Shown here: in pieces, positions 22,136-52,498 of the stretch | How positions within the stretch are numbered: the first letter of the stretch is position 1 | Layout of the letters: the number at the start of each line of letters is the position of its first letter | Assembly (NCBI RefSeq): GCF_988243305.1 | Contig: NZ_OZ547136.1 | Reading direction: 5' to 3' (one strand) | Length of the DNA: 64,000 bases | Notes under the pieces: generated by a model | The model's database searches: none | The model's input: only the letters and a program-made list of their open reading frames with translations | What the model was told of the DNA's origin: nothing | Translations under genes and position numbers: made by a program

Positions 22136-23288
<1,153 letters not shown>

Positions 23289-23489
23289 GACAGGATTTCC
23301 TTGTGTATGTGGGGTGCTCTGTGGCGCTCTGAGATGTGATTTGATTGAGGGTTTTACAGCGCGGACATTTAACTTCCAGATAACTGAAGCTGGCTCGTGC
23401 CAGTAGCTTGTTACAATGTCGGCACCGTATGTTTCGATACATGGCCGCATAACCTCCTGCTTTGTTGTTGATATCTTTATCACTCAATC

Positions 23490-23506
23490 GATCGACAAAA
23501 ACGATC
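23490..23506 (-). promoter_or_regulatory. pair of GATC (Dam) sites upstream of com-mom
   Basis: Two GATC 13 bp apart within CAATCGATCGACAAAAACGATCGATT; by analogy to the Dam/OxyR-controlled Mu mom promoter. Confidence 0.3.
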
Positions 23507-23698
23507 GATTTGATTTATTTAATTGATACAACAAATAACACGAAATGTCATTAGCGAAAATTTATGAGTTTGATCACTAATTTTAAACGGTGCTGTAACG
23601 CATAAGTGCTGAATGATTGTACATTTGAATACCGCAAAGCAAACAAATCAACTAATTTATAGAAGTCAATTGGTTAATTGCCAGCGTAAGAGGCTGCT

Positions 23699-23992
23699 AT
23701 GGACAATCATGTAACGACGAGAAATCGAAAAATGATTGAAAATGCGGAAATCTATAATGATTATTTTTCCGATTATTCAGATGCCTGCAAATACAGTTCG
23801 AGTGCGGGAGAGTTCATATGCTTCAACTTTTTTATTAAATCTTATGTTTTTCCTCCACAGCAAGAAGATGGAGGTGTGCCACCTCCTGAAATCACTTTGC
23901 ACCGTATAGCCTCCGTCTCAATGATGGAGCAACAGGCTAATGAGCTGTATAGCATTCTGGGAACGATTCTACAAAAGCGTGAATCGGACTAA
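23699..23992 (+). CDS. hypothetical protein (97 aa), opposite-strand cargo gene
   Basis: ORF with AAGAGG SD 6 nt before ATG in an AT-rich segment; plus-strand hairpin plus T-rich tract at ~24128-24160. Confidence 0.45.
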   Translation: MDNHVTTRNRKMIENAEIYNDYFSDYSDACKYSSSAGEFICFNFFIKSYVFPPQQEDGGVPPPEITLHRIASVSMMEQQANELYSILGTILQKRESD

Positions 23993-24159
23993 TGATACCG
24001 GTTCATTTGCCTGCCCGGATGGGGAAGCAGGATTGACTGCTCCATAAGCAGCTATATTTCTGAATACGAAATACTATCCAGCGATTACATATGGCTGGAT
24101 AGCGGCAAAGATGTTTTCATTAGTGTCAAACCGGCAGAGGACACCACCGGTTTGTATTG

Positions 24160-24414
24160 TTACATCATGGTACTGTCAGTTCCGGGCTGAGCCGGGTCTG
24201 GTTGCTCTGGCTGCGCGTCGGTTTTCGGCTCATTATCAGCATCACTGGCCGCAACTGCTGGCCCAATAAGTTTTGCCAGCACTTCATCAACGTAAGTGTC
24301 GATTTGTGCCTCAAAATCCTTGCGGACCTGCGCTTTCAGCAACTTATTTACTTCACCGGAATACAGTGCCTGTTTTACCAGGTCTTCAGTGACGGTGCCT
24401 TTAATTTCTGGCAT
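24160..24414 (-). CDS. hypothetical protein (84 aa, acidic Pro-rich C-terminus)
   Basis: ORF MPEIKGTVTEDLVKQALYSGEVNKLLKAQVRKDF...; third gene of esterase block. Confidence 0.45.
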   Translation of the reverse strand: MPEIKGTVTEDLVKQALYSGEVNKLLKAQVRKDFEAQIDTYVDEVLAKLIGPAVAASDADNEPKTDAQPEQPDPAQPGTDSTMM

Positions 24415-24449
24415 GTATATCCTCCTTATGCGGGAATAAAGCCCTGCAA

Positions 24450-24632
24450 TCAGGGCTGGGTCGGGTCTTTTGGGAGCGGAGTTACCTGCGCTGTTTTACT
24501 GAGTTTTTCAGCTGCTGCGTCCTCAATTTTGCGGCGAACATAATTTCTGATGGCCTTATAACCACCACTCACCAGATATAACGCACATACTGCCGTGCAG
24601 AAATACAATAAAATAAGCTGTAAAAATGTCAT
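24450..24632 (-). CDS. small membrane protein (60 aa, one N-terminal TM helix)
   Basis: Start at second Met with GGGAGGG SD: MTFLQLILLYFCTAVCALYLVSGGYKAIRNYVRRK. Confidence 0.5.
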   Translation of the reverse strand: MTFLQLILLYFCTAVCALYLVSGGYKAIRNYVRRKIEDAAAEKLSKTAQVTPLPKDPTQP

Positions 24633-24776
24633 TATCCCTCCCAATTATTGACATGGTGTTGACACCGGTAATATCTGTTAGGTAAAAAGGTGCACTGCAT
24701 TTTTTGCTTTGGATATAACGATCTTTTTGCCGCCGGTTTCTTGTTTTCCCTTACCGGCGGCATTTTTTTATCCTGC

Positions 24777-26831
24777 TTACGCGTTATTCACTTCCACCAC
24801 GATACTGTCAATCAGTACCGGGTAAGTCGCATTTTTAGTGATATCGGTCACGCGCAACTTGTCTGCCGTAAACGTGCCGACCGGAGACTGCGACAGCATG
24901 AATGGTGTCCCGTCCTTACCATCAATGACCGGCGTCACCTCAATACTGTTGTTACCGGCAAAACGGAAGCCCAGCGTATGCCATTCGTTATTAAATGCGC
25001 CGAATGACCCCAGCTTCGTGTTCTGCGCCGTGTTTCCTTTGTGATACATCACGTTAAGGTCTGTGGCATCGCTCTGTACGTAGAACGATGCCAGCAGGTT
25101 ATGACCGGCATTTCCTTCCAGAGTAACCCCTTGCGGCAGGGCAGAAACCGGCCAGTACAGCGCCAGTGCGTACTGATTAGCCGTAAGCGCGCCATCGAGT
25201 TTAAAACGACAACTGACAAGACCACCTTTACCCAGCAGGTCCGCACCATTACCAGCATCATGCTCAAGGTACCAGGGGGCTCTTCCTGTTTCCTTGGTCA
25301 GTTTCATTGCCTTACCCCCGCTGGCTCCGGCATCATCCACGATTTGAGCCTTGCCACCTCCGGCAGCCCAACCCTGTGGTGTCAACCGTCCTTCAGACTC
25401 AGATGCCCGGTAAGCAAATAGCGTACTCATCGTCGTGGTGTCTGCGGGTGGCGTGGACGGTTTTGATGGTGTATCAGGTGACGGCTTCTCATCCGGTGGT
25501 GTCACGGTCTGCCCGCGCATCAGTTCAGCCGTGCGCCCTGCATGGAGCATAATAGCTGAGGCCAGACGGTCTGAAATGACGCCCCTGCGTGCCCATGAGC
25601 TGAAATGGCTGTCACGCTGTGTCGAAACAAAACTGCCCTGGGTTCGGGATGCTGCACCGTAATACCCGACAGCCACAATATCCGGGTCTTCCGCCGGAGC
25701 ATTCGTTGGCGTGCTCTGTCCATTCTCATCCGTCAGGAACGGTACAAAGAAAATTTTCTGTGCTTCCTTGCCTTTGTAGCCACCGTATACTGCCTCATAT
25801 TTATCGGTGCCAGCGTTTTTCCAGTAATACGTGGTATCACCGCAAATCCACGGCACCGTGGTGGCATTTCCACTCACGCACTGCGCAGCAAGCGGAGCCA
25901 GGTCAGTTCTGAACTGCTGAACCATGGCCGTGAATAAACTATTATGCTGCTGGCTTCCTGAGGCAAGGTCTGCCTCTCCCTGCATCCAGACCACAGCCAG
26001 AAGTTTGTTTTTCGGGTTTTTCGCCAGCGCGACTTTGGTGCGGCTTACCAGGTCCTGATACAGAGGTTTACCGGCCCCCCAGCGTGAAGAATCAGCGGAA
26101 GCACCGCTGGCCTCACTGAATGAGCCGTCGGCTCCAGTGGTGAATGCTGACCCGCCACGACAACAGGGCACCAGAAGTATCCCGGCATTCTGTGGGATAT
26201 AGGGAAGCAGTTTTTTGGCAATATGCAACCCCTGACCGACAGTCCCGTACTGGCCTTTTGCCAGATCAGCTTTCGGGTGGTTTATCCCGCTCATATCCTG
26301 AACATCATGCAGGCAGTGGTCTGCCGGAATGATGTCGTTGTATGTACACGACGTACCGTTGGGCGTTACCGCACTGCGGCGTGCCAGTTGCTTAATGCGT
26401 GGGTCCGGGCGGTCAAACGAATCCGGTAACGGCAGCCCCTCGCCGTAGGCCATGCCATTTGACTGACCCGCGAGAATGACAACAAAGTAATATTCCGGCT
26501 CTGAACTGCTGCCATTCGTGCTACCGGAAGGCCCGGCGTTATCCGGTGCATTCCAGTCGGAGGGCGTGAGCGTTCCGGCCACGTCAGATGTGATTGGAAT
26601 GATGCCAGTCACGCCTGAACTGGTGATTTCTGCACTGGGATTACCGGATACCGGCATTACCCATAATGGCTCTTTCGTGCTGAAGCGGATCACGCAGTCT
26701 GCGAAGGTGATCCCCCCTTTATTACCCGAAGGGCGGAAAGGGCTTTCAATAAATGCCACCGTGCCACCGGCAACCTTGACTGAAAACTCTCCGGGCATGG
26801 CGGAGAGCATTTTCCACTTGGAGTCTGACAT
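24777..26831 (-). CDS. prophage-encoded SGNH/SASA-family sialate O-acetylesterase-like protein (NanS-p-like) with C-terminal lectin-like domain
   Basis: 684-aa ORF; catalytic block YYFVVILAGQSNGMAYGEGLPLPD, VPCCRGGSAFT, AVVWMQGEADL, RDSHFS resembling E. coli NanS; Pro/Thr linker then ~190-aa beta-rich C-terminal domain. Confidence 0.75.
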   Translation of the reverse strand: MSDSKWKMLSAMPGEFSVKVAGGTVAFIESPFRPSGNKGGITFADCVIRFSTKEPLWVMPVSGNPSAEITSSGVTGIIPITSDVAGTLTPSDWNAPDNAGPSGSTNGSSSEPEYYFVVILAGQSNGMAYGEGLPLPDSFDRPDPRIKQLARRSAVTPNGTSCTYNDIIPADHCLHDVQDMSGINHPKADLAKGQYGTVGQGLHIAKKLLPYIPQNAGILLVPCCRGGSAFTTGADGSFSEASGASADSSRWGAGKPLYQDLVSRTKVALAKNPKNKLLAVVWMQGEADLASGSQQHNSLFTAMVQQFRTDLAPLAAQCVSGNATTVPWICGDTTYYWKNAGTDKYEAVYGGYKGKEAQKIFFVPFLTDENGQSTPTNAPAEDPDIVAVGYYGAASRTQGSFVSTQRDSHFSSWARRGVISDRLASAIMLHAGRTAELMRGQTVTPPDEKPSPDTPSKPSTPPADTTTMSTLFAYRASESEGRLTPQGWAAGGGKAQIVDDAGASGGKAMKLTKETGRAPWYLEHDAGNGADLLGKGGLVSCRFKLDGALTANQYALALYWPVSALPQGVTLEGNAGHNLLASFYVQSDATDLNVMYHKGNTAQNTKLGSFGAFNNEWHTLGFRFAGNNSIEVTPVIDGKDGTPFMLSQSPVGTFTADKLRVTDITKNATYPVLIDSIVVEVNNA

Positions 26832-26900
26832 CGTCTTTTCTGCCTGTTTCTGAATTAAACAGAGTCAGAATAGCGACCGCTGAAAAATATGTGTTTTGCG

Positions 26901-26937
26901 GAAATTCAAAAAAGCGTCACGGTACTTTTGGTGACGG
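26901..26937 (-). terminator. rho-independent terminator at gin 3' end
   Basis: Minus strand reads CCGTCACC-AAAAGTACC-GTGACG followed by CTTTTTTGAATTT; stem includes gin stop codon. Confidence 0.45.
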
Positions 26938-27489
26938 AGCTGGTGAGGCAGGAAAATAACGATAAAGGGTGGAAAGGCCAATATCAAATATCAGTGCGAT
27001 TTGTTTACGGGACTCGCCATTAGCCAGCAAACGGGCGATTTGCTCCCGCTCTTTCTCTGTCAGTTTCTGAGGTCTGCCGCCATGACGCCCCTGAGCACGG
27101 GCAGCAGCAAGACCCGCGCGTGTACGTTCAATAATGAGTTCCCGCTCCATTTCCGCCAGCGCGCCCATTATATGGAAAAAGAAACGTCCCATGGGAGTGG
27201 ATGTATCAATATTGTCCGTAATGCTGCGGAAGTTAACGCCGCGTTGCCGGAGTTCTTCTGTTAAAAGGACAAGGTGCTGCATACTGCGTCCAAGGCGATC
27301 CAGTTTCCAGACCAGCAGGGTATCCCCTGGCCGGAGTCGCTTTAATGCGCGTTTAAGTCCGGGACGCTCCCTTGTCTTACCGCTTATTCTATCTTCGAAA
27401 AACAGCTCACATCCTGCACATTCCAGCGCATTTCTTTGTAGCGCCGTATTCTGGTCATTTGTTGACACCCTGATATACCCAATCAGCAT
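26917..27489 (-). CDS. gin: Gin/Hin/Pin-family serine DNA invertase
   Basis: MLIGYIRVSTNDQNTALQRNALECAGCELFFEDRISGKTRERPGLKRALKRL... closely matches Mu Gin. Confidence 0.85.
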   Translation of the reverse strand: MLIGYIRVSTNDQNTALQRNALECAGCELFFEDRISGKTRERPGLKRALKRLRPGDTLLVWKLDRLGRSMQHLVLLTEELRQRGVNFRSITDNIDTSTPMGRFFFHIMGALAEMERELIIERTRAGLAAARAQGRHGGRPQKLTEKEREQIARLLANGESRKQIALIFDIGLSTLYRYFPASPAPSPKVP

Positions 27490-27554
27490 ACGATTTCCTT
27501 ATTATAAAAAGCCGGAATTGTCGCATGAGGAATAAAACAGAGTTAATCCTGGCT

Positions 27555-27580
27555 TTCCTGAAAACCTCGGTTTACGGGAA
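27555..27580. other. gix-like recombination site (left)
   Basis: TTCCTGAAAACC-TC-GGTTTACGGGAA resembles gix/hix consensus. Confidence 0.6.
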
Positions 27581-37586: not shown

Positions 37587-39089
37587 TCACAAAATGAAAC
37601 GGATCTGCGCGGCCATGAAGCGGAACTGGTTAACCAGATCCGGTGTACACATCACATCCAGACGGTTACGGTCTTTTGTGTTGCGCTCCACGAGCAGATT
37701 CTTTTTAAAGGTGTCCAGATTTTCGACCAGCCCGAGTTCCACCCATTCTTCCCCCAGTGCAATCAGCTGGAGCGTCATAATCTCCGGCGTCACGATATTC
37801 TGACCGGGCCGGACGGGAGTACCGTTATCGGCCAGTTTGTGGCGCGGGAAACGCTGCGTGATAAAGGTGCGCAGGGAATAACGCAGATATGACAGGGTGT
37901 AGATGGTTTCTACATCCAGATAGCTGGGATCGCTTTCGCCGTATGCATTCTGACGGTACATCGTCACCTGACGTTCAATCTGCACCACATCAGCGGCCGC
38001 AACGGTCACCGTGGACATGCCGGTATAAAGCAGGCTGTTTCGCTCTTCCCGCGTCAGACGAGCCGGTGCTTCAGGTGCCATACGGGCAGGCAGCGCCAGT
38101 GTCTGTAATGGTCGGGCCGGATCCGTTGACAGGGAGGGCGCACAGACCGCACAAATGGAGGCCGCCCAGACATAATCCGGCTCTGGTGCTTTAGGAATAG
38201 AAGTGCAGGTAAACAGGAAGTCATTACGGGATTCACCAAAACTGGTTGCCGTACCGAAGGTGCCGGTATGCGCCATCCAGACCATACCGTCCGACATTTT
38301 TACCGGTCCCCAGCGTTTCAGCAGTTCATCCGCCAGAATTTTGAGATTTGCCGCATCCTTATAGGGCATGACGATGTAGTTGTACTGACGATTCCCCATC
38401 CCTGAGACGCTACGGGTGATATCGGGGTTTGTTGCCTTCTGTGTTGGCGCGACGAGCTCCAGCGTAAGACCGGCCGGTGTAGTTTCACCGTCATAATAGT
38501 TCACCCGTAAATCATGAGCTGAGCATTCACCGATAAAGCGGGCGTTAACCCCCATGCTCCCTTTAAGTCCTTCAGCATTATCACCACTGACTTCAGCTGC
38601 GATAGCAGTGAATGGCGCATCAGTGTCAGCGTTAATGACCTTAGCCAGCTCTTCCACAAGCTCTTTACCTTTTTTCCCCTTACTGACGGGCAGGAGGTAA
38701 CGGCGACCGCCGATGTAAACACTTAACACCCCGTCTGCCAATGCTGTTCCAATGATATTCATCACGCATGCCCTGGACTGACCTGTTCCAGCCCCCTGTG
38801 CAATGGCATATAACTCTGTGTCAGGGTTAATGGCGATAAATTCCTCTACCATCAGTGCAATCATGGAACCTCGCCCCCAGAGTTCTCTTGCTTGTGAAGC
38901 TCGGGTAATACGTACTGGTACATCAAGCTGACCGCGCCCCTGAATGGTGGTGTCTTTCATTGCAGCCTGACCAAACAACAGTACCGCCTGACGCTGTGGT
39001 GGAGTGCCGGTCACGGCCATTGAATTATTGATTTCAATCTGTACCAGCGGAATGCGATTGTTATCGCCGATATAATCAAAGTTAATCAT
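37587..39089 (-). CDS. contractile tail sheath protein
   Basis: 500-aa ORF; size and position typical of myophage sheath. Confidence 0.75.
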   Translation of the reverse strand: MINFDYIGDNNRIPLVQIEINNSMAVTGTPPQRQAVLLFGQAAMKDTTIQGRGQLDVPVRITRASQARELWGRGSMIALMVEEFIAINPDTELYAIAQGAGTGQSRACVMNIIGTALADGVLSVYIGGRRYLLPVSKGKKGKELVEELAKVINADTDAPFTAIAAEVSGDNAEGLKGSMGVNARFIGECSAHDLRVNYYDGETTPAGLTLELVAPTQKATNPDITRSVSGMGNRQYNYIVMPYKDAANLKILADELLKRWGPVKMSDGMVWMAHTGTFGTATSFGESRNDFLFTCTSIPKAPEPDYVWAASICAVCAPSLSTDPARPLQTLALPARMAPEAPARLTREERNSLLYTGMSTVTVAAADVVQIERQVTMYRQNAYGESDPSYLDVETIYTLSYLRYSLRTFITQRFPRHKLADNGTPVRPGQNIVTPEIMTLQLIALGEEWVELGLVENLDTFKKNLLVERNTKDRNRLDVMCTPDLVNQFRFMAAQIRFIL

Positions 39090-39376
39090 CAGGACGTCCC
39101 CTTGTCTGATGCTGCGGGTTTTTCAGTCGCGGGTTTTTCAGTCGCAGGTTTTTCTGCTGCCGCTCCCGCGGGTTTTCCGGCGGCATCAGTCGTTGCAGAC
39201 GCTGCTGCCGGTGCTGCTTCAGCCGCTTTTTCCACCACCATGACGTCCCCGTCATTAAGACGGCGGCACCAGAACGGGGTGAAGGGTTTTTCCTCTCCCT
39301 CCTGCGCCAGCGGTTTCATGGTGTCCGGATCGCGGATCAGGCATCCCGGCGCGGGTTTGATAAAAATGGTTGTCAT
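39089..39376 (-). CDS. hypothetical head-tail joining region protein (Mu gp38 position)
   Basis: 95-aa ORF with Ala/Pro-rich low-complexity C-terminus. Confidence 0.4.
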   Translation of the reverse strand: MTTIFIKPAPGCLIRDPDTMKPLAQEGEEKPFTPFWCRRLNDGDVMVVEKAAEAAPAAASATTDAAGKPAGAAAEKPATEKPATEKPAASDKGTS

Positions 39377-39379
39377 CTG

Positions 39380-39943
39380 TTATTCCTCTGACGGTCCGGC
39401 TTTTTCACCGGCGGCGGTTGCACCTGGCAGGCTGATGTGCGCCTTAAATTCCGGTGTGCCTTCCGGTTCGGTGAAGGTTTCGTAATGGCGCAGGAAATCA
39501 TCCAGCGAGCTGATATCCGTCAGCGGGTCGATCATTTCCTCGCATGAGAAATAAAGGGCGTACATCACGGCTCCGCTGTCGGCCTGCGTTTCGGTGTAAC
39601 CGTTAACCGCCTTTTCAAAGTAAAGCGGTGAGGTTTTTTCGGTTCTGAAGCCGTTCAGTACGGCAATCAGGCGGGCCACAATCTGATAAAGTCCCGGACG
39701 GCTGACCTCACGGCCATTGAGCATGTCGCCGATGACGTAGAACACCCAGTGACTGACCAGACGCCCACGGGTACGCCCTTCACCGGCACCCAGCCAGGCA
39801 ACATAGATAGCCGGGGCGTTAATCAGCATGGTGCGCAGCACGCTGTCGCTCCAGTCGCCGGGATGGGTGTCAACAGACACCAGTTCATTCCCGAAATACT
39901 CACGGATGCGGGCGATATATGCCTGTTCGGTTTCCGTAATCAT
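39380..39943 (-). CDS. hypothetical virion protein (Mu gp37 position)
   Basis: 187-aa ORF; synteny only. Confidence 0.4.
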   Translation of the reverse strand: MITETEQAYIARIREYFGNELVSVDTHPGDWSDSVLRTMLINAPAIYVAWLGAGEGRTRGRLVSHWVFYVIGDMLNGREVSRPGLYQIVARLIAVLNGFRTEKTSPLYFEKAVNGYTETQADSGAVMYALYFSCEEMIDPLTDISSLDDFLRHYETFTEPEGTPEFKAHISLPGATAAGEKAGPSEE

Positions 39944-40359
39944 ATAAAGCCCTTCTGGTTGCGCCCGAACACCGCCGCATCAGACTGCACCTGCGGTAAA
40001 TCCCCGGATTCAGGGGCCGCACCGTCGGTATCCACGCCGACCGGCACATTGCCGTTCATGACGTCTTTCAGCCAGGCCAGCGCCTCACGGTAACGGTCAC
40101 GCGCCTGATCGGATGCCCGCTGATCGCACAGGTAATAAAAGGCAATCGTGCAGCAGTGCTGAACAAGAACCGCCGGAACCACCGCCAGCGGCAGCGTGTA
40201 ACGGGAAGACAGATAGCTGTCGATAAGGGCAGACGCGTCCGTCAGTGCCCGGTTCAGCTTGCGCGTGTCCGGTTCATCCGAACGGGGCACTGCCAGTAAT
40301 GGCCTGAGCAAATCCTCGCGGTAACGTGCCCGCATATCGGTTTCGGTGGCGTAATTCAT
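39940..40359 (-). CDS. hypothetical virion protein (Mu gp36 position)
   Basis: 139-aa ORF; synteny only. Confidence 0.4.
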   Translation of the reverse strand: MNYATETDMRARYREDLLRPLLAVPRSDEPDTRKLNRALTDASALIDSYLSSRYTLPLAVVPAVLVQHCCTIAFYYLCDQRASDQARDRYREALAWLKDVMNGNVPVGVDTDGAAPESGDLPQVQSDAAVFGRNQKGFI

Positions 40360-40709
40360 GCGCGCGCCTTTTTTGCCTGTCTGGCGTTATTGCCGGTCTT
40401 TTTCCGGGGAGCATCCTGTCCGGCTTCGGCTAAATCTGCACCGGTCTCTGCATGAACCACACCCGCCACGGCTCCCGCATCATCACCAGGCGTCTGTAGT
40501 ATTCGTACAGTGAGGCATGGCTCCGCTTCCAGTCGGGCAAGCTGCTCCGGGGTGACGTCAACCTGCTGGCGTCCCCGCATGAACAGGAACCCCGCACGAC
40601 GAAACTGCGCACGACTGCAACGCACTTCTGCCAGTACCGTGACAGGACTGTCACCACTGACCTGAAGGCCTGAATCATCTGTTGCTGCCACAGTGTGATG
40701 TTCATTCAT
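40356..40709 (-). CDS. hypothetical protein downstream of major head gene
   Basis: 117-aa ORF; synteny only. Confidence 0.35.
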   Translation of the reverse strand: MNEHHTVAATDDSGLQVSGDSPVTVLAEVRCSRAQFRRAGFLFMRGRQQVDVTPEQLARLEAEPCLTVRILQTPGDDAGAVAGVVHAETGADLAEAGQDAPRKKTGNNARQAKKARA

Positions 40710-40752
40710 ATTTGCCCTCCGCAGGGGCCGGGCCGTAAGCCCGGCTCACCGT

Positions 40753-41700
40753 TTACAGATAATCCGCGACAACCAGCTCCAGCTTGCCCTTCATCTCGTT
40801 AGAGACGGTGGTGTTACCGTCCGCGAACAGCTCGCGCTCCAGCAGCTGCACCGCCTGTTTTTCCAGCGAGGTGGGGACAACAATATGGGTGGGTTTGATG
40901 CCGAGTTTGCGGCCACCGTCAGCCTTAAAGTCACGCATGGCTGACCAGCCGTGCCACAGCGCATCCAGCGTCAGCGGTGACTGCATCATGTAGGCCATCT
41001 GCCAGAAGCCGTAGCCCACATTGCGACGGGCGGAAGCACCGAACACAAACTCGTTATCAGTAAACGCACGGCCTTCATCGACTTTTGTCTGGGCAACCAG
41101 TTCGGCCTTGCGGCGATCCTGATAAATCAGCGGTTTTACCGCGCGGGAGCAGTCAAGCAGATACCAGGCCGGGCCGCTGTAATCCGCCTGTGCACCGACA
41201 GAGCCGGTTTTTGCCACAAACATATTGCTGACCATCTGTGCATCACCGGAGCCATCCACTTTGGGGTAAACAGGGTGTTCGGTATCAAAGAAGTTCTGGC
41301 CGTCATAGCAGGCCGCATTCAGACCATCACGCAGTGCAGCAAAGACCAGTTCATCCGGTTGTGCCGCCGCAGCGCGCCCCATCTCCTGGAACAACGGGGA
41401 GTAGATGCCAAGATTGTCGTCTTCAAAGTCATCGCGGCTAATGGCAACGGTGCCTTCAAAGGTTTTGTTCACGATGGCGTAGCCATAGGCTTTCATCTTC
41501 TCGATGACGCGGGAGCCGATCCACTCACGGAACTGCGGGAACTGCCCCAGCCAGCCGTAGGTGTTGGATTTCGACGTGGACGGTACGGTCATCGCAATTT
41601 TCTGGTACTGAGACGGAGCCATGGACATCCCGGCCTGAAAATCAGAACGGTAGCCCGTCATCAGGGCGGTGATCATCGCCGGTGTGATCGGGGTAGGCAT
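40753..41700 (-). CDS. major head subunit (Mu T-like)
   Basis: 315-aa ORF immediately downstream of protease/scaffold gene. Confidence 0.7.
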   Translation of the reverse strand: MPTPITPAMITALMTGYRSDFQAGMSMAPSQYQKIAMTVPSTSKSNTYGWLGQFPQFREWIGSRVIEKMKAYGYAIVNKTFEGTVAISRDDFEDDNLGIYSPLFQEMGRAAAAQPDELVFAALRDGLNAACYDGQNFFDTEHPVYPKVDGSGDAQMVSNMFVAKTGSVGAQADYSGPAWYLLDCSRAVKPLIYQDRRKAELVAQTKVDEGRAFTDNEFVFGASARRNVGYGFWQMAYMMQSPLTLDALWHGWSAMRDFKADGGRKLGIKPTHIVVPTSLEKQAVQLLERELFADGNTTVSNEMKGKLELVVADYL

Positions 41701-42824
41701 TATTGCATTTCCTCTTTCATTTTCAGGAACTCGGCTTCGGTTTTACCCAGCAGATGGGCGGCGGCGATATCTTCAGCCGACAGCGCAGCGGTGGCGGTCT
41801 TTTTATCCGGCACGGTTACGGTGTCGGTCTGAAGAGTGGTCAGAGCCGCAACCGGCTGGCGGGCGTCAAGCTGTGCAGAAAGTGCCGCAACACCAATCTG
41901 TTGTCCGAGTCCTTCCATGTATCCGCGTTCGCTTTTGAAAATGCGTCCTTCGGACTCGGCCTTATCCAGCAACTGCTCCAGCGTGGTGCAGCCGTGTTGT
42001 GCCGACAACGCGACATATTCGGTACGCAGGGCGTTATACGTCTCAACGGGCACGTATTTCGTCAGATCAATAGTGCCGCCAGTTGGTGTGCCTTTTGCGG
42101 TTTCCAGCTCTGCCGACAGGCTGGCAACCTGCGTTTTCAGGGTGTCGTGCGCATCCGCACGGGTTTTGAGCCCGGTAAGGGCAGACAGCGCCGCCGTGCC
42201 CAGTTCCGGTGTAAATTCGTCACCGTCGGCCACGGTCAGACCGAGCGCCGTCAGCAACTGGCGTAATTGCTCATTCATGGAGGTGTCCTTTAAAGGAGGG
42301 TTTAAGGCGTTATAAAGGTCATCCGCCGACAGTGCGGCGACAGGATTCATGCCAGTCAGACCGGGGTCACCGGTAATAGCCAGCATCCGAAGCTCAACAG
42401 GTTCACCGGTGATTTCGTCATAACCAATCACCGGGGAAAACCAGGGAAATTCGTTATTGCGCAGGTGTTCAATGGCCGGAGGGTTCCAGTCCGGACGCAC
42501 TTCAAAACCCCGCTCTTCACTGAAGCGGAAGTTTTCCGGTGAGGCCATGACAAAACCGGCAGCCGGTGCCGGATGCCCCTTAATCAGGGTCTGGTGGTTG
42601 TAGTCAATTTTTACCGGCTGATTGAGCGCCACAACCCGGGATACCATGCGCTCAACGGCCGCATGGTTAATCAGCCAGCCTTCCGCCGGTTTTTCCGGGC
42701 GACCGTCACGGGCCTTTACCCGACCGGCTGGCATGATCTGACACCAGTCACCGTCCCCGTCTGCGGACAGGCTGATGGCATTCAGAATGGCATAAGCAAG
42801 TTTGGGCGTGTTTTTCGTCTTCAT
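41700..42824 (-). CDS. head maturation protease/scaffold (Mu I-like)
   Basis: 374-aa ORF with coiled-coil C-terminal half, upstream of major head gene. Confidence 0.65.
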   Translation of the reverse strand: MKTKNTPKLAYAILNAISLSADGDGDWCQIMPAGRVKARDGRPEKPAEGWLINHAAVERMVSRVVALNQPVKIDYNHQTLIKGHPAPAAGFVMASPENFRFSEERGFEVRPDWNPPAIEHLRNNEFPWFSPVIGYDEITGEPVELRMLAITGDPGLTGMNPVAALSADDLYNALNPPLKDTSMNEQLRQLLTALGLTVADGDEFTPELGTAALSALTGLKTRADAHDTLKTQVASLSAELETAKGTPTGGTIDLTKYVPVETYNALRTEYVALSAQHGCTTLEQLLDKAESEGRIFKSERGYMEGLGQQIGVAALSAQLDARQPVAALTTLQTDTVTVPDKKTATAALSAEDIAAAHLLGKTEAEFLKMKEEMQ

Positions 42825-43001
42825 TCCGGCAGCATAAGCCGGTGTTTTTCGGGGCCGGTTTTGCGGGACTTCAGAAAGTGCTGACAGGGGAAAAATGAGA
42901 AAGGCGCTTCACGCAGATTTTAAAGCCCGTTAAATACAGGTTAGAAAATCACGACACGCGCCTGAAGAGGGTAAGGTAATGCGTTTGTATACCTTAAACC
43001 A

Positions 43002-43475
43002 TTACGGCGTTTCTGTGGCCTTTTTAAAGCGTTTTCTGATTTCGTCCATGATCTCCTGTTCTGCCACCTGATCAAAGCCCATATACGGACGTGCGCCAAT
43101 GGCCGCCGGTCCCGGTGGCATACCAGGCAGGCCACCCCACTGATGAATGGCCGCATAAGGTTCATTTGATCCAATCAGCGCCCAGGTATCGCCATAATCC
43201 GTGGTCAGGCGGCGGGCCAGATCGCCGTTCAGTGTCAGGATTTTGCCGGGCGTGTATCCCTTACGGGTACGCCACTTGCGGTAAGGATCTGACCAGTCAT
43301 GCCAGCGTTCGCCGTCCGGCTCTTTTTCCTGTTCAAACGCCATTTCTGACGATGACAGAAGACTCTCCGCCACACTGCGGGCCAGGTCTTTTCCGCCGCC
43401 CACAAACTGAAGCCGGGCAAACACCCGCTGGAGACGCGTAACGTCAACAACGACAGTGGCATCAATGGATGACAT
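43002..43475 (-). CDS. virion morphogenesis protein (Mu G-like)
   Basis: 157-aa ORF between F-like and I-like genes. Confidence 0.55.
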   Translation of the reverse strand: MSSIDATVVVDVTRLQRVFARLQFVGGGKDLARSVAESLLSSSEMAFEQEKEPDGERWHDWSDPYRKWRTRKGYTPGKILTLNGDLARRLTTDYGDTWALIGSNEPYAAIHQWGGLPGMPPGPAAIGARPYMGFDQVAEQEIMDEIRKRFKKATETP

Positions 43476-43596
43476 ATTGCCTCCGCATAAAGGATGAATA
43501 TAAAATAAACAGGCGGTCAGTGTACGCTTAACTGGTAAAGTCGGTGCCTGCCTCCGGGTGGATCATGTATGCGGGTTCGACCCCCGCCACTGACCG

Positions 43597-44928
43597 TTAA
43601 TCAATTTGTCCTTCCAGCACCTCAAGCATTCCGCCCCGGATATCCGATTTCAGCTTATCCATATTGATAACCCGGTAAGCATTCACAATCACATCCAGTT
43701 TGTCGGGCTGATGTTTCAGACTGTACGGTGCATTAACGGCAATCTGCACACTGCCATCCTTATTTTCCACGATATACATCAGATTTTTGTGCCGTTTGTC
43801 CCACAGCACCGCTTTTGGCTTTGCCAGCATTGCCGGTAAGCGCCCGAAGTCCTCTGGCATCAGGGCGATGCCGTCATTCTGATGTTTCACACTGTCTGCA
43901 TGGAGCACATTTTTACCGCTCATCGCCAGCAGGCGGGCCGGTGGCGTTCCCGTCCGGCTTTCCACTGCCTGCGCAATGCTTTCAGTCATAAAGCCCAGCG
44001 TGCGGATATCGTTACCACCTCGCCGGGTCTGCATGATGTTTTTTGCCCAGATGCGGAACGCCAGCTGCCGCTCCGGGCTGTTGTTCATCTCCTGAACCAC
44101 CATTTCCCGTAACGCCGGGCTTTTCACCTCGATCAGTTTGCGGATCAGCGCCTGGTCTGTGCCGAACGCTGCCGAGCCGGGGTTATATGACCAGCCCACA
44201 TCCGGTGTCATGGTTCTGGTGCCATCTGAATATGTGGTCACCGGCATTTCTCTGACTTCTCCGGTCTGTTTATCCACGCCAGCCTCAACATTGCGGGTGG
44301 AGAGATGATCCTCACCGGATGAAACGGATAACCCCATTGCATCCAGACGAGCCTGAGACAATGGCCGCACACGGCAGCGGCAGTTCCAGCCATTAGGTGG
44401 GTAGTGTGTTTTCCAGAACGGATCGTCATAGCGGAATACCAGACCGTTAAGGGCGGAATGCGACGGGCGGGTACGGCTGTCCATGACCGCCACATACTGC
44501 CAGAACGGATGCGTGTCCGTGTTGTTCATCATCTGCGTGTAACGCCCGGCATTGTAAGCCACACGGGTGTTCACGTTGTAAATCAGCGCCAGACGACGGG
44601 GACTGCCCAGTTGCACTTCTTCCGCGTTACCGTCGCTGTCCACCACAATCTGCTTTCCCCACCATCCCAGCTTTTGCAGGCGTGGCGTCAGCGTGCGGAT
44701 AAATGCTTTCTGTGAAATTCCCTCATCAATGGCCCGCTGCACTTCGGCCTGTAACGTGGTCACCACATCCAGGCGTGCCGCTTTTGCTGCCGTGAATGAG
44801 CGGGCATGAACATCCGCGGCTGTTTCGAACCAGTTCCAGCTGATATGCGCCCCTTTGACACGGAAGTATGCTACCGCCTCTTTTGAGGGAAGCGTGGCGG
44901 CATAACCTAAATCAATCCCCTGTGTCAT
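43597..44928 (-). CDS. head morphogenesis protein (Mu F-like)
   Basis: 443-aa ORF containing NGWNCRCR motif typical of Mu F/SPP1 gp7 family. Confidence 0.7.
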   Translation of the reverse strand: MTQGIDLGYAATLPSKEAVAYFRVKGAHISWNWFETAADVHARSFTAAKAARLDVVTTLQAEVQRAIDEGISQKAFIRTLTPRLQKLGWWGKQIVVDSDGNAEEVQLGSPRRLALIYNVNTRVAYNAGRYTQMMNNTDTHPFWQYVAVMDSRTRPSHSALNGLVFRYDDPFWKTHYPPNGWNCRCRVRPLSQARLDAMGLSVSSGEDHLSTRNVEAGVDKQTGEVREMPVTTYSDGTRTMTPDVGWSYNPGSAAFGTDQALIRKLIEVKSPALREMVVQEMNNSPERQLAFRIWAKNIMQTRRGGNDIRTLGFMTESIAQAVESRTGTPPARLLAMSGKNVLHADSVKHQNDGIALMPEDFGRLPAMLAKPKAVLWDKRHKNLMYIVENKDGSVQIAVNAPYSLKHQPDKLDVIVNAYRVINMDKLKSDIRGGMLEVLEGQID

Positions 44929-46501
44929 CCAGCATCCCCTTCATTTCCGCAGCAAACATGGCATCACTGAGCAGCGTCATCAGGCGGGAATCATCCATTT
45001 CACGATAAAGGGCAGGCAGGTCTGCCAGCGCATCCGCCAGCCCCCGCGTTCTGATGGCATCAATGACCGGCTCCAGTACCGGGTCGATGGCCTCCTGTAA
45101 GCGGCGGGCAGGCACCGCGTCCCCCATATCATCCAGTTCATCACGCGGCGTGCTTTTCGCTTCCGGCAGTCTGGCTGACAGCGCCGTCTGCTCTGTTTTT
45201 TCCTGTTTTTCCGGTGGTGTTTCCCTGTCGGTCTGAGCCGGTTCATTGCCACTCTGACGGACACGGAATATGGCTTCACCGGGCGTGGGCTGCGGAATAC
45301 CGGTCTGCTCCCGTATCCAGGGATCAGAAATATCCATCCCCGTACTGAGCTGCATCACCGCACTGGTGATTTTGGTGATATCACCTGGTTCTTTGGTCTG
45401 GAAGCAGATACGTGGCAGACGGCGGATATCAATAGTGTGCGTGGTGTTCAGGGCGTACAGCGGATACACCAGATCGCGGTTCAGGGTTGCAGCCAGCTGC
45501 CGTAAATCAGAATCCCTGATTTCCCGGCGCACCTCGTTATGCACCTCACCCAGCGAGCGCGCGCCTTTGTCTCCGGCTTCCGTGGTCAGCGTGCCGCCGA
45601 GTATTGCTTTGGAGATGGAACGCTCCCCCCACGAAATCATGGTTTCAAATGGATCGGCCTGACCGTTTGCTGCCGCCTGAAATTCCAGCGACATCCCGGC
45701 CGGGATGATCCCGCCTGTACGTCGCCCGATATCCATCACCGCCCGCATCAGGGCGCTTTTCTGCTCCGGTGTTGCCCCGGACGGGTATTTCCCGACCTTC
45801 ATCGGCAGTCCGTACACCTCCAGAAATTCGGCCAGATCGCGCACGGAATAGTTTTTGAAAATGAACGGCCAGATAAGCGTCCTGACAAGCCCCGTTGCGC
45901 CACCGTAACCGGTCCGTGAACGTGACTGATGCACTATCCAGCCAAAAGGCTGAAACGCCACCCCGGCATGGCTGCCGTCACGCAGCCGCAGTTCGCTCAA
46001 ATCATCCGGGTTAAGGCAGAAATGCCCGCTGTCACGCCAGCGGATGGCGCGGATGATGTGCATTTTACCGAGCATCCCGTGCTCAATTTCCATGCAGGAA
46101 TAGCCCTTCAGGATGGCATCCGTGGCGTCAAACAGCATGGCATCAAACCAGTCTGCGGAATGCAGATATTCGTCGAGCATTTCCGCGTCCTTTTTCTCAT
46201 TCGCGCTGGCGTTCGGTGGCGGCTCAATACTCCATGGCACCCCCTGAATGGCAAGACGTCGCTTGCCCAGCTCCGCAAAAAGGTGGGTGTCCTTTTCTTC
46301 AATATCAGCGGCCAGATCGGACTGGGCAATCAGATCGCCACGTTCAGCCCCGCGAAGGCACTGCGCCGCCCGGTTCGGGGTGATACCCGAAGCCGGATGT
46401 TCAATATAACGGCTGGCAATCTGCGGAATATCCAGCGCGGCACTCTGCATCTCCGGGTCAAAGGAGAAAGGTTTTCCGTCAGTATCAATGATGCGTCCCA
46501 C
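44912..46501 (-). CDS. portal protein (Mu H-like)
   Basis: 529-aa ORF directly downstream of large terminase. Confidence 0.7.
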   Translation of the reverse strand: MGRIIDTDGKPFSFDPEMQSAALDIPQIASRYIEHPASGITPNRAAQCLRGAERGDLIAQSDLAADIEEKDTHLFAELGKRRLAIQGVPWSIEPPPNASANEKKDAEMLDEYLHSADWFDAMLFDATDAILKGYSCMEIEHGMLGKMHIIRAIRWRDSGHFCLNPDDLSELRLRDGSHAGVAFQPFGWIVHQSRSRTGYGGATGLVRTLIWPFIFKNYSVRDLAEFLEVYGLPMKVGKYPSGATPEQKSALMRAVMDIGRRTGGIIPAGMSLEFQAAANGQADPFETMISWGERSISKAILGGTLTTEAGDKGARSLGEVHNEVRREIRDSDLRQLAATLNRDLVYPLYALNTTHTIDIRRLPRICFQTKEPGDITKITSAVMQLSTGMDISDPWIREQTGIPQPTPGEAIFRVRQSGNEPAQTDRETPPEKQEKTEQTALSARLPEAKSTPRDELDDMGDAVPARRLQEAIDPVLEPVIDAIRTRGLADALADLPALYREMDDSRLMTLLSDAMFAAEMKGMLDDTGD

Positions 46502-48168
46502 TACCAGCCCCCCCGATCAAATTCATGATATGCCTCATCGTCATCACGATAACCGCCCTCCATTGCCCGCGACCGCTCCGGTAGCGCCTGACAGGCTGAT
46601 TCATCCAGGATGAAGCCCTCCATGTATGACGCCCGGTTTGCCATACAGAGCGCCACGGCAAAATCACCATGGCGGCGGGCGTTCGCAGCCGTTGCGTTCT
46701 GGTCCTTCGTGCGCCCCTTGTCGATTTGCGGGATACCATTCACTACCTTCACATGGCGCAAATCATCAAGCGTGGTCTGATGGCGGGCGACGAGGATATT
46801 CTGATCTTCAAACTCGGCTTTCAGTTTTGGCATCCACTCGCCGTACCACTTCGGCGACAACATCACGCAGTCGATGATATCCGGGCCAAAGGCCAGCAGT
46901 GCGGCCTCTGCCAGATAGCCGCCGTTACCGGTGGCGTCGAACGCCGCACCGACCAGCGCCGGAACGCGGGTCAGGATGTACATCATCACCTGTTCCTGCT
47001 GGGCATACGGCAGGTTGCGCAGCTCCACGCGAAACACCTCGCGCTTTGCCAGGGATTCGGTGATTTCCAGCAGCACAAAGCAGGACAGGTCACCGGTGCG
47101 GGCAAAGTCTTCCCCGAAGCTGAAGCGGGAACGGGGATTTAATTTCTCTAAAAGCGGTTTTAAATGTTCTTCACACCAGGTTAAAACTTCCGATTCACGC
47201 AGCCATGCGGCACGGCTGATGAAGTTGTCCGGGGCTTCAAACGTCAGAATCGGGATGTCGCGGATCATCGCCATTTCAATAAGCGCGTGGGGGATATAGG
47301 CACCGCCGGATTTTTTCGGGATACAGCCGTATTCCTCGTCGGCATCCTCACGGGTCGGGGCGTTTTTGTAGAGATCATCACGCCATTTCTGCTCGCTTTC
47401 CGGTGACCATTCCTGATCGGTGACGTAACAGATACGACGGTACAGCCCGTCCGCAATGGCATCATCCAGGGTTATGCGGTGGACGCTGTAATCCTTGCGC
47501 CCCTCGCGGGCTTCCTGAATGTACTGATTAAACAGATTATCGACGCCGTTATGCGTGGAGATAATACGCACGCGCGCGCCCCACATAGTGAGCGCCATTG
47601 CCGCCTTGAGAAGCTCATCCAGTGACTCGTGGAACGCGGCTTCATCAATCACCACATCCCCCTGAAGGCCGCGCAGGTTTGACGGACGGGAAGACAATGC
47701 CTGAATTTTGAATCCACTGTTCGGAAAGCGGATCATGTAGGTCAAAATTTCTTCTTTTTTATCCCGATCCCAGAATGTCTGCTCATACACATCAGCATCT
47801 GCCAGCTGGTTAAAGGCACGGGAGAACAGCGCGCAGGCAGAAATATATTCCAGCGCCATCTCCTGCTTTGATCCCACATAAAACACATTGCGGCCACCAC
47901 GACGCTTCGGTTTTGCAGCAGTAATGACGTTACGCCCGGCTTCCGCCCAGGTAAGACCGGTGCGGCGGGATTTCTCCGCGATGCAGACCTGACTTTCATC
48001 TGCAAACCAGCGGGCCTGATAATCCAGAAACACCGGCATATCACCGGGCAAATCAAGGCTGTCCGGCACATCCACGCCCAGCAGGGCTTTTTCACCTGAC
48101 AGATCAATTTTGCGGGGAGGCGTCATTTGCATCAGTGAAGGCGACGTTTCTCTGGCTTTGTTCATCAT
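46501..48168 (-). CDS. terminase large subunit
   Basis: 555-aa ORF; size and position upstream of portal. Confidence 0.75.
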   Translation of the reverse strand: MMNKARETSPSLMQMTPPRKIDLSGEKALLGVDVPDSLDLPGDMPVFLDYQARWFADESQVCIAEKSRRTGLTWAEAGRNVITAAKPKRRGGRNVFYVGSKQEMALEYISACALFSRAFNQLADADVYEQTFWDRDKKEEILTYMIRFPNSGFKIQALSSRPSNLRGLQGDVVIDEAAFHESLDELLKAAMALTMWGARVRIISTHNGVDNLFNQYIQEAREGRKDYSVHRITLDDAIADGLYRRICYVTDQEWSPESEQKWRDDLYKNAPTREDADEEYGCIPKKSGGAYIPHALIEMAMIRDIPILTFEAPDNFISRAAWLRESEVLTWCEEHLKPLLEKLNPRSRFSFGEDFARTGDLSCFVLLEITESLAKREVFRVELRNLPYAQQEQVMMYILTRVPALVGAAFDATGNGGYLAEAALLAFGPDIIDCVMLSPKWYGEWMPKLKAEFEDQNILVARHQTTLDDLRHVKVVNGIPQIDKGRTKDQNATAANARRHGDFAVALCMANRASYMEGFILDESACQALPERSRAMEGGYRDDDEAYHEFDRGGW

Positions 48169-48413
48169 GCTTTACCTGTCAGAATGCTTTTGATTCGGGA
48201 CTCAAGCTCTTCAGTCATCACGTCCACGCCGCTCAACTCATCAGTGGCAGCCTCTGCCAGCAGCGAATGCAGTTGTTCCAGGGATATTTCCCCGGCAATG
48301 CTGAGTTCAGTCAACTCACGACATACCTTTATGGTTTCAGGAGGTAACTGTGTTGCAAGACTGAATGCTTTCTGATGGGCACTGCTCATCAGTGAGCGGT
48401 TATCTGTTGCCAT
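48165..48413 (-). CDS. hypothetical protein, paralogue of C-terminal segment of the upstream gp27-like protein
   Basis: C-terminus AATDELSGVDVMTEELESRIKSILTGKA aligns with AVTDELRGVDGMSEQIEFRIRQMLLGKA of ORF 48424..49005. Confidence 0.4.
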   Translation of the reverse strand: MATDNRSLMSSAHQKAFSLATQLPPETIKVCRELTELSIAGEISLEQLHSLLAEAATDELSGVDVMTEELESRIKSILTGKA

Positions 48414-48423
48414 GATTCACCTC

Positions 48424-49005
48424 CTACGCCTTACCCAGCAGCATCTGCCTGATACGGAATTCGATCTGCTCGCTCATGCCATCCACGCCGCGCAACTCAT
48501 CGGTGACCGCATTCGCCATCTCTTCAGCAAATGCGGCCCGGATTTCTTTTTCACGCTTAATGCTGCGCTCGGCGGCACTTTCTGCACGCTGTGCCGACAG
48601 GAGGATGTCCTTAATAAGGCGCATATCCACATCGCTGTCGCTGTTCAGGGATTCGGTGGCGGCACGCAGACGGCGGTACATCAGGGCACGGGACATCTCC
48701 AGAATCAGTGCCGTGGTTTCACCGGTCGGCTTATCCCCCAGTTCGGCCATCATGGCTTTTGTCTGCTCGCGTAAATCACGCAGATTACGGGCAATCAGCT
48801 CATTACGGGAGGCTTCCCGGCTGATGGCCGCCGGTGAGAGCTGCTGCTCTTCCGGCAGACCTGCTTCACGGATCAGACGGTTGATTTCCTCGCGGATCTG
48901 GACCTGCGTCAGACGTTTTTCACGCAGCATTTCCAGCAGCGGCTTACGGATGCTGTCGGGGAGCAAATCCACCTTGCGTACACGGCCACGCGTCGGCTTA
49001 TCCAT
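48424..49005 (-). CDS. terminase small subunit-like protein (Mu D/gp27 position)
   Basis: 193-aa ORF upstream of large terminase; synteny. Confidence 0.55.
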   Translation of the reverse strand: MDKPTRGRVRKVDLLPDSIRKPLLEMLREKRLTQVQIREEINRLIREAGLPEEQQLSPAAISREASRNELIARNLRDLREQTKAMMAELGDKPTGETTALILEMSRALMYRRLRAATESLNSDSDVDMRLIKDILLSAQRAESAAERSIKREKEIRAAFAEEMANAVTDELRGVDGMSEQIEFRIRQMLLGKA

Positions 49006-49007
49006 CG

Positions 49008-49298
49008 TTACCCCCTTGCGCGTGGTTTCTTCACACCCGGAACAGTGGCACGACCTTCCGCCACATCCTGACCCCGGCCGGTCAGTTCAGCGATGAAATA
49101 ACCGTTAACAAGCGTGCGCTTACGCACCAGTCCCTGCTCAGCAAGCCAGGCAATGTGGGTGTGAACGGTGTCGCGGGACACGCGGTGGCCGTAATCATCC
49201 AGGCAGTCCTGAAGCACGGATTCGCCCAGTTCGCCGTTGTAATCCGCCAGCGACCGCAGAATGACAAGACGCTGATCTTCAGTAATGAAATCACTCAT
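49008..49298 (-). CDS. hypothetical protein (Mu gp26 position)
   Basis: 96-aa ORF; synteny only. Confidence 0.4.
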   Translation of the reverse strand: MSDFITEDQRLVILRSLADYNGELGESVLQDCLDDYGHRVSRDTVHTHIAWLAEQGLVRKRTLVNGYFIAELTGRGQDVAEGRATVPGVKKPRARG

Positions 49299-49602
49299 TG
49301 TGTTTTTTCCTTACAGCCTGCTCCAGCAGCAGTTCGTTCTGGTGGGAGACGGATTTCAGGGTGGCATTGGTGGCCTTAAGCTCACCGCGCAGGGTGGTGA
49401 TTTCGATATTGAGTCTGTTCACCTCCTGCTGCGTGGGCAGGCCGGAAATCCGGCTCTCCACCCGCTCAACCCGGTCGGAGAGTTTTTCAAAGGCCTCGCG
49501 GGGGACAAAGGTTTTGCGCATCAGCGCCATAAAGATCCCCCCGGCCGTGGCTGTTGCCGACAGGATCGGCACGACATAATCTTTAACGATGCTGACCCAC
49601 AT
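49291..49602 (-). CDS. hypothetical membrane protein (single TM helix; Mu gp25 position)
   Basis: N-terminal hydrophobic segment VVPILSATATAGGIFMALM then coiled coil. Confidence 0.4.
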   Translation of the reverse strand: MWVSIVKDYVVPILSATATAGGIFMALMRKTFVPREAFEKLSDRVERVESRISGLPTQQEVNRLNIEITTLRGELKATNATLKSVSHQNELLLEQAVRKKHNE

Positions 49603-49810
49603 GACCGGCCTCCATGATGCTCTGGCAGTTCACACAACGGATGGCATCCGGCACGGCAACCAGACGGGCGGCCGGAATGTCACCCCCGCAGTCTGCGCAT
49701 ACACGCCTGCCCGGAGTCTCCTCCACCCGGCACTTACGTGTCAGCCGGTCACAAAGGGCGCGTTCTGTTGCCCGCTCCACGACTGCCTGAGCACAATCTG
49801 AATCATCCAT
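49583..49810 (-). CDS. TraR/DksA-family C4 zinc-finger protein
   Basis: Start at MDDSDCAQAVVER within longer ORF; CADCGGDIPAARLVAVPDAIRCVNCQ four-Cys motif. Confidence 0.6.
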   Translation of the reverse strand: MDDSDCAQAVVERATERALCDRLTRKCRVEETPGRRVCADCGGDIPAARLVAVPDAIRCVNCQSIMEAGHVGQHR

Positions 49811-49820
49811 ACCTTTTTCC

Positions 49821-52475: not shown

Positions 52476-52498
52476 TTAAAGAAGTTACCAAATCAATG

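Follow-up and report, generated by a model that had tools for sequence, protein, structure and literature searches.

A predicted NanS-p-type sialate O-acetylesterase with a Mu-lineage N-terminal domain in Sp18-type prophages of Escherichia coli

The window analyzed here is a stretch of 64,000 nucleotides (nt) from contig NZ_OZ547136.1 (NCBI RefSeq assembly GCF_988243305.1), and it contains a 39-kb Mu-like prophage of the Sp18 type. Between the DNA invertase gene gin and the com-mom genes of this prophage lies nanS-p, a gene for a 684-aa protein, which belongs to a three-gene module carried without exception by the Sp18-type Mu-like E. coli prophages examined. Three aspects are new here: a lineage-specific N-terminal domain (N-domain) in place of the DUF1737 domain of known NanS-p proteins, a domain-wise mosaicism with lambdoid copies, and a likely control by a late promoter. 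We consider it probable, at roughly 0.7, that the gene encodes a three-domain sialate 9-O-acetylesterase of the Mu lineage, which is carried on the module, would be expressed late and released by lysis, and would act on mucin sialic acids. Coordinates are listed in Table 1.

That the gene product is a phage-type (NanS-p) SASA esterase with a lectin-like C-terminal domain is well supported by sequence comparison. The original prediction, made from the letters of the window, had pointed to a resemblance to E. coli NanS and to prophage-borne NanS-p proteins, and all four strings that it quoted were located in the open reading frame (ORF), including AGQSNGMAYGEGLPLPD at residue 121, VPCCRGGSAFT at 221, WMQGEADL at 282, and DSHF at 407. 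Database searches bore out this resemblance with significant matches. As listed by Pfam, SASA (PF03629) covers residues 117-312 (E = 1.8e-12) and DUF6645 covers residues 533-650 (E = 2.9e-67). The structure of E. coli NanS/YjhS (3pt5) aligned end to end with residues 110-428 (E = 1.8e-117), and that of a NanS-p C-terminal domain (6yp6) aligned with residues 469-683 (E = 7.2e-98). The Pro/Thr linker and the lectin-like domain of the prediction were both recovered. PHROGs placed the protein in phrog_143 (E = 1e-295), and an NCBIfam search of the 684-aa protein returned no model. The same coding sequence (CDS) in identical prophages is RefSeq entry WP_001284083.1, and the gene goes under the names "DUF6645 domain-containing protein" or "sialate O-acetylesterase" in RefSeq.

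Catalytic residues were assigned by motif and not by published residue numbers, using the definition of the SASA family, in which Block I is GQSN with the oxyanion-hole Gln, Block III is (H)QGE, and Block V contributes a His (PMC9487903). Block I corresponds to G122-Q123-S124-N125, Block II to R225-G-G-S, Block III to Q284-G285-E286, and Block V to H409. In an alignment of 20 sequences with identities down to 53%, G122, Q123, S124, N125, G226, Q284, G285, E286, and H409 were invariant; thus, the serine of GQSN and the histidine of DSH, on which the original prediction had relied, are both retained. The residue in front of QGE is Met rather than His, as it is in NanS in the 3pt5 alignment. The Asp of DSHF, which had also been taken as a hallmark, did not hold up, since the place of D407 is taken by Ala in Sp18-type and 933W-type copies and by Ser in NanS, and a catalytic Asp-His pair was therefore ruled out, leaving only His409 invariant. 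Hence D407 is no catalytic-triad residue, and a Ser-His dyad, as in NanS, describes the esterase best. It has been reported that the Block V Asp is optional in the SASA family and is missing from EcNanS (PMC9487903). These data indicated a predicted catalysis by a Ser124/His409 dyad with an oxyanion hole formed by Gln123 and QGE, as in E. coli NanS. The two proteins have identical GQSN, QGE, and Block V His residues, and neither has a conserved Block V Asp. They differ in that NanS is a single-domain, chromosomal member of the nan regulon, whereas the phage-borne protein adds an N-domain and a C-terminal domain.

Table 1. Features of the nanS-p module, its candidate expression signals, and the surrounding Mu-like prophage in the 64,000-nt window
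Feature	Position	Strand	Basis or remark
nanS-p-type sialate O-acetylesterase CDS (predicted)	24777..26831	-	684 aa, coordinates with stop codon; ORF list, Pfam, PDB, PHROGs
Mu-type N-terminal domain, residues 1-93	26553..26831	-	all-beta, not DUF1737
Linker 1, residues 94-110, Ser/Gly/Pro-rich	26502..26552	-	predicted local distance difference test score (pLDDT) <50 over residues 81-109
SASA/NanS esterase domain, residues 111-432	25536..26501	-	3pt5 alignment
Linker 2, residues 433-466, Pro/Thr/Ser-rich	25434..25535	-	sequence; pLDDT <50 over residues 433-466
C-terminal lectin-like jelly-roll domain (DUF6645)	24780..25433	-	Pfam, 6yp6
Candidate late-promoter (Mor/C-type activator) element, GCTTTTTTGAATTTCCGCAAA	26895..26915	-	starts 2 nt past gin stop
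Second motif copy	51047..51067	-	overlaps late-activator stop, upstream of endolysin gene
Third motif copy, CTTTCTGAAGTCCCGCAAAACC	42858..42879	-	upstream of head maturation protease gene
10-bp GC-rich hairpin	24728..24762	-	15 nt past nanS-p stop; fold z -3.5, -3.8
Hairpin past DUF826 stop, possible end of module transcript	24127..24154	-	fold z -2.75
DUF1378 small membrane protein gene, second module gene	24450..24632	-	60 aa; phrog_494, RefSeq name
DUF826 gene, third module gene	24160..24414	-	84 aa; phrog_311, RefSeq name
97-aa ORF between DUF826 and com	23699..23992	+	ORF list
com-mom, right prophage end	22551..23487	-	phrog_6417/13819, phrog_1384, RefSeq annotation
gin DNA invertase	26917..27489	-	phrog_125, E = 2e-94
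Mor/C-family late-activator gene	51058..51480	-	
Transposase gene	58143..60233		
Mu-like (Sp18-type) prophage, 39 kb, in dcyD	22419..61496	-	K-12 host homology stops at 22422 and restarts at 61497

The N-domain sets this protein apart from the lambdoid and Shiga toxin (Stx) phage NanS-p proteins, a difference that the original prediction had overlooked and that became evident from Pfam and from identity comparison. DUF1737 occupies residues 3-53 of the 933W NanS-p (PMC10462455), and its fold in phage phi24B consists of a helix and three strands (10.64898/2026.04.10.717836). Residues 1-110 of the window's protein gave no Pfam match, DUF1737 (PF08410) included, and the N-domain is 13-23% identical to DUF1737-type N-termini. 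An AlphaFold2 (AF2) prediction of the N-domain yielded an all-beta fold of five strands (pLDDT 74), with the same topology in the full-length model. Thus, a diverged DUF1737 was ruled out both by sequence and by predicted secondary structure; an unrelated domain of ~93 aa stands in its place. This domain was found only after the tail-fiber/gin region of Mu-like prophages, and a tblastn search against phages returned only Mu-like inserts. A word-indexed search for homologues gave fragments only and a scan of genome contigs gave nothing, while an exhaustive search of representative sequences recovered one true distant relative (Salmonella, 30% identity) next to a second match that was discarded as spurious and of low complexity. 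No paralogue of the N-domain was detected in the 64-kb window or in the retrieved loci. Fold searches produced only generic cupin-like or small beta-barrel matches; afdb50 added stand-alone proteins of 75-83 aa from Salmonella, Citrobacter, Morganella, and Pantoea. P0005 matched phrog_4772 (E = 8e-6), which is counted with A0A633DL65, A0AA40NH31, and A0A2U3ERC9 among the stand-alone relatives of ~80 aa.

The remainder of the protein has a different history. DNA homology to lambdoid nanS-p (87%) begins at 26499-26501, i.e., at codon 111 just past linker 1, and ends at 24498 within the DUF1378 gene. The esterase and lectin domains of the window's protein are 84-93% identical to DUF1737-type lambdoid proteins, versus 69-73% identical to the Sp18-type Mu copy. 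Among Mu-type copies, that of STEC299 has an N-domain of 99%, an esterase domain of 88%, and a C-terminal domain of 34% identity to the window's, and another combines an N-domain of 100% with an esterase domain of 81% identity; further loci pair an Sp18-type N-domain with a body 51% identical to that of the window. Since the identities differ from domain to domain, the N-domain stays with the Mu backbone and the rest recombines with resident prophage copies. The STEC299 copy (from a marmot E. coli; locus 6172-8304) may bind carbohydrates with another specificity while sharing the N-domain and the esterase.

We also found that nanS-p does not stand alone between gin and com-mom: its position is as the original prediction had stated, but the interval also holds the DUF1378 and DUF826 genes and a plus-strand ORF of 97 aa. 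Lambdoid and Stx phages have the trio of nanS-p, DUF1378, and DUF826 as well, ahead of their holin gene; examples are Stx phage PA28 and non-Stx lambdoid prophages, where stx/Q lies on its other side. Because the same trio recurs in these phages, we regard it as a three-gene module. Compared with phage Mu, the gin, com, and mom genes are homologous and their order is identical. In Mu, however, gin ends at 35673 and com starts at 35768, a spacing of 94 bp, in agreement with the prediction that gin is directly followed by com-mom there, whereas ~3.4 kb with four ORFs separates them in the Sp18-type phage. The gin-mom amplicon of SfMu is 1.5 kb (PMC4406740). The module is indeed extra DNA relative to Mu and SfMu.

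The resemblance to the lambdoid and Stx systems thus covers the SASA esterase, the DUF6645 lectin-like domain, linkers of the same kind, the lack of a signal peptide, and the downstream DUF1378 and DUF826 genes. Identity is 62-66% to Stx-phage NanS-p and, for the esterase-lectin body, 88-91% to some non-Stx lambdoid copies. The differences lie in the missing DUF1737 (the capsid anchor in phi24B) and in gene context: lambdoid and Stx copies are located between Q/stx and the holin gene S, whereas this one is found in the gin to com-mom interval of a myovirus that is transposable and Mu-like, with no adjacent lysis cassette. In the P2-like (Peduoviridae) phages vB_EcoM-569R5 (1-1251) and PV468777 (P88-like; 1-1464), a DUF1737-type nanS-p, cut by the record end in both, directly follows the lysis cassette. 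With Peduoviridae prophages included, at least three phage architectures that are unrelated to each other thus carry the module.

To what extent the gene is tied to this phage lineage was assessed in 5,426 complete E. coli genomes, with a threshold of at least 95% identity for the transposase (MuA) gene. MuA of the Sp18-type phage was present in 232 of them. The segment coding for the N-domain fell into two subtypes, that of the window in 27 genomes and that of the O157:H7 Mu-like prophages in 205, which add up to 232, about the number of MuA carriers. DNA of the identical type (at least 99% identity, gin included) was found in 20 complete genomes; in others, gin is missing and the module is at the same place. 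Insertion sites include bcsA, flgL, the molybdopterin-oxidoreductase gene next to torY, gsiA, and dcyD, a diversity that is expected for a transposable phage. All 34 IMG/VR contigs encoding the N-domain showed the order tail-fiber assembly gene (U), gin (where present), N-domain, esterase body, DUF1378, DUF826, com, and mom, and the same gene arrangement was seen in a Mu-like phage residing within an Stx2c phage. A more distant case is a Mu-like prophage of Salmonella enterica, in which gin and two small ORFs precede the 30%-identical N-domain fused to a GQSN esterase. The original prediction of inserted and unusual cargo was therefore right insofar as the module is absent from Mu, but the gene is constant within its lineage.

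The O157:H7 Mu-like prophages belong to this lineage, and their homologue, WP_010917876.1, agrees with the window's protein in position, architecture, module, and Mu-type N-domain. The two differ in sequence, with 62% identity in the N-domain, 69% in the esterase domain, and 73% in the lectin domain, and the esterase-lectin body of the window is closer to lambdoid copies than to WP_010917876.1.

That the gene might be an inactive, passively carried relic is hardly credible. The ORF is intact at its full 684 aa, the SASA catalytic blocks are unchanged in copies as low as 51-53% identical, and ~232 genomes have kept the gene, at a variety of insertion sites; nothing specific speaks for decay apart from a rearranged copy in E. 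coli JKHS016. The prophage of that strain is 99.9% identical elsewhere, but its head and tail genes are split and inverted and several CDSs are partial, and this copy is probably no longer functional.

Expression was approached through the spacer between gin and nanS-p, which is 85 bp long with 39% GC versus 55% in the CDS. The 18 specified bases of GCTTTTTTGAATTTCCGCAAA, the element in this spacer, occur once more in the 64-kb window, ahead of the endolysin gene, and a third copy of the motif precedes the head maturation protease gene. In a diverged Sp18-type prophage, the motif is present at all three positions, and variants lacking gin retain it upstream of nanS-p. Its core resembles TCCCGCA, which is present upstream of the lys gene and the I gene of Mu. 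C-dependent late promoters of Mu were reportedly described upstream of these two genes by Margolin et al. in 1989. We infer from these sequence features that the motif is a late promoter, driven by the single Mor/C-type activator of the phage. Lambdoid nanS-p copies are under Q antitermination, and the Mu-like copy would presumably depend on the Mor/C-type activator instead. Lambdoid nanS-p is a late gene, induced together with stx or the late genes by mitomycin C (PMC10462455, PMC8065619). A late promoter fits both this late expression and the absence of a signal peptide.

The original prediction had further suggested a transcription unit of its own for the gene. The AT-rich spacer agrees with this, but a terminator scan did not find the terminator proposed at the gin stop, and shuffled sequences fold as well as the spacer does (z -0.75). 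Downstream, the T-run of the hairpin past the nanS-p stop is confined to the plus strand, and the hairpin therefore resembles an antisense terminator or a messenger RNA-stabilizing stem and not a terminator of nanS-p; the hairpin past DUF826 is a possible end of the module transcript.

On this basis, late-phase transcription of nanS-p would start at a promoter that the phage's single Mor/C-family activator recognizes. The N-terminus, MSDSKWKMLSAMPGEF, when read directly, contains no hydrophobic stretch and hence no signal peptide, so the protein would exit the cell only at phage lysis, either free or on particles. Outside the cell, it would take 9-O-acetyl groups off mucin sialic acids. Sialidases, and the Nan catabolic pathway of those sibling lysogens that survive, would then have access to the deacetylated sialic acids. 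The enzyme may also act at the phage particle. In line with such an activity, all NanS-p alleles tested were active esterases and supported growth on 5-N-acetyl-9-O-acetylneuraminic acid (Neu5,9Ac2) (PMC8065619).

Several points weigh against this interpretation. Sialate specificity rests on an identity of ~65% to NanS over the esterase domain, and SASA enzymes also accept other acetylated glycans such as acetylxylan (PMC9487903). No assay of an esterase from any Mu-like prophage was found in the literature searched, and AF2 modeled the full-length protein with mediocre confidence (pLDDT 65). As for expression, the motif was deduced from three sites in one genome plus its conservation in the related lineage; it was not found before the tail genes or com, and the Shine-Dalgarno sequence ahead of the nanS-p ATG is weak. 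A scan for sigma-70 promoters was uninformative, with 6 sites versus 7.8 expected from shuffles.

The last result also bears on a classic lysogenic-conversion gene, as the original prediction had envisaged, which would be transcribed from its own sigma-70 promoter in the repressed prophage and give each lysogen a private extra NanS activity. We consider this unlikely. It would agree with the AT-rich upstream spacer, with a position near the prophage end, where morons are frequent, and with a weak sigma-70-like match inside the 3' end of gin (26987-26959). However, the promoter-like matches were not above shuffles, the protein has no export signal although its substrate is extracellular or periplasmic, and the homologues in lambdoid phages belong to the late genes that mitomycin C induces. 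The conserved upstream element, which nanS-p has in common with the lysis and head operons, suggests late expression instead.

If the enzyme leaves the cell on particles, it could be a virion protein. NanS-p of phi24B, gp84, is an abundant virion protein that decorates the capsid, where a DUF1737 hexamer sits at the hexon centers and the enzyme is later clipped at its linkers (10.64898/2026.04.10.717836). The Mu-type N-domain might likewise be a particle anchor, the counterpart of the phi24B DUF1737, presenting the esterase-lectin body on a Mu-like head or another surface, where it would aid binding and movement in O-acetylated sialomucin until the linker is cleaved. To our judgment this is a minority possibility, albeit one that can coexist with the lysis-released enzyme proposed above. 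It draws on the gp84 precedent and on a domain, known only from Mu-like prophages, that takes the DUF1737 slot ahead of the same linker-esterase-lectin body, remains tied to the phage backbone when the esterase and lectin domains are exchanged, and has a fold that also occurs stand-alone at ~80 aa, as with DUF1737. Furthermore, the gene is present in every lineage copy examined, like a structural gene, and has a late-promoter-like motif in common with the head operon. In contrast, DUF1737-type copies occur in podoviral Stx, lambda-like, and P2-like phages with quite different heads; therefore, a capsid-specific anchor is not obviously required. Besides, identity between the N-domain subtypes of E. 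coli is only 62%, versus ~85% DNA identity in the structural regions. We tentatively put forward that the N-domain could be a new virion-anchoring module and that anchor, esterase, and lectin could form a portable decoration whose anchor is swapped per phage type. If so, the surface of transposable Mu-like phages in gut E. coli would bear an enzyme that modifies mucin sialic acids, and podoviral Stx, lambdoid, P2-like, and Mu-like phages would each attach the decoration through an anchor of their own.

An aid to adsorption is a less probable function still, one in which the esterase would strip O-acetyl groups from the O-antigen or the O-acetylated polysialic (K1) capsule of the target cell and thereby expose the receptor. 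The idea has been raised for NanS-p (PMC8065619), the gene adjoins the host-range G segment and the tail-fiber genes, and one weak PHROG match was to a tail protein (phrog_25867, E = 1e-6). But there is no similarity to the N-terminal anchor domains of tail fibers or tailspikes, the phi24B protein is located on the capsid and not on the tail, and the identical module occurs in phages with unrelated tails.

The surrounding prophage showed the hallmarks of a Mu-like phage, i.e., MuA and MuB genes, a Mor/C-type activator gene, an invertible segment linked to gin, com-mom, and varied insertion sites, and the endolysin, head protease, major head protein (40753-41700), and invertible tail-fiber segment were also identified. 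Sp18 cannot be induced with mitomycin (PMC2669165). Mu has two activators of this family, Mor and C. In the window, only one such gene is present between the gemA-like gene and the endolysin gene (51058-51480), and the Sp18-type lineage may thus run a two-tier rather than a three-tier transcription program. At the insertion site, the prophage/dcyD junctions (22415-22425 and 61492-61501), when compared with uninterrupted K-12, overlap by a 4-bp TGTA only, and a clean 5-bp target duplication of the Mu type was not found there; in the record LC727881, too, the duplication given for the Mu-like insert is of 4 bp.

The G-segment region beside gin (27555-27929 and 27980-29414) contains a tail-fiber assembly gene on the plus strand, a tail-fiber gene on the minus strand, and a partial tail-fiber fragment. 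Related loci differ in the orientation of the assembly gene, which agrees with an invertible segment that is active. On the other side of the module, the 97-aa ORF (23699-23992) had no PHROG, NCBIfam, or PADLOC match, and a role in defense was dismissed since PADLOC gave no credible match for the module or this ORF. Sp18-type prophages have a different ORF, of 154 aa, in the same slot, and the slot between DUF826 and com is therefore a variable moron position.

Mom expression in Mu is controlled by Dam methylation and OxyR at a GATC cluster upstream of com. Directly upstream of com in the window (23486-23510), there is a palindrome, AATCGATCG-N7-CGATCGATT, with two GATC sites, which resembles the Mu cluster (AATCGATCGG...GATCGATT). 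In the Mu-like phage inside Stx2c phage LC727881, com is followed not by mom but by an ORF of 350 aa with the C5-cytosine methyltransferase motif GTPCQAFS (locus 9221-10472). The gene for DNA modification under com control seems to have been exchanged there.

NanS-p has been discussed almost only as an accessory of Stx and other lambdoid prophages, and no paper treating it together with Mu-like prophages was found in the literature searched. The Mu-like lineage adds another carrier: its prophages are present in ~4% of complete E. coli genomes, O157:H7 included, and every copy examined has a nanS-p. With the DUF1737 anchor described in a preprint, it becomes testable whether the protein is a virion component with a phage-specific anchor or a lysis-released public good for siblings, and a role of the N-domain as a virion anchor would make the gene more interesting. 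The lineage also adds uncounted nanS-p alleles in strains where the dosage of sialic-acid esterases has been linked to growth on mucus sugars.

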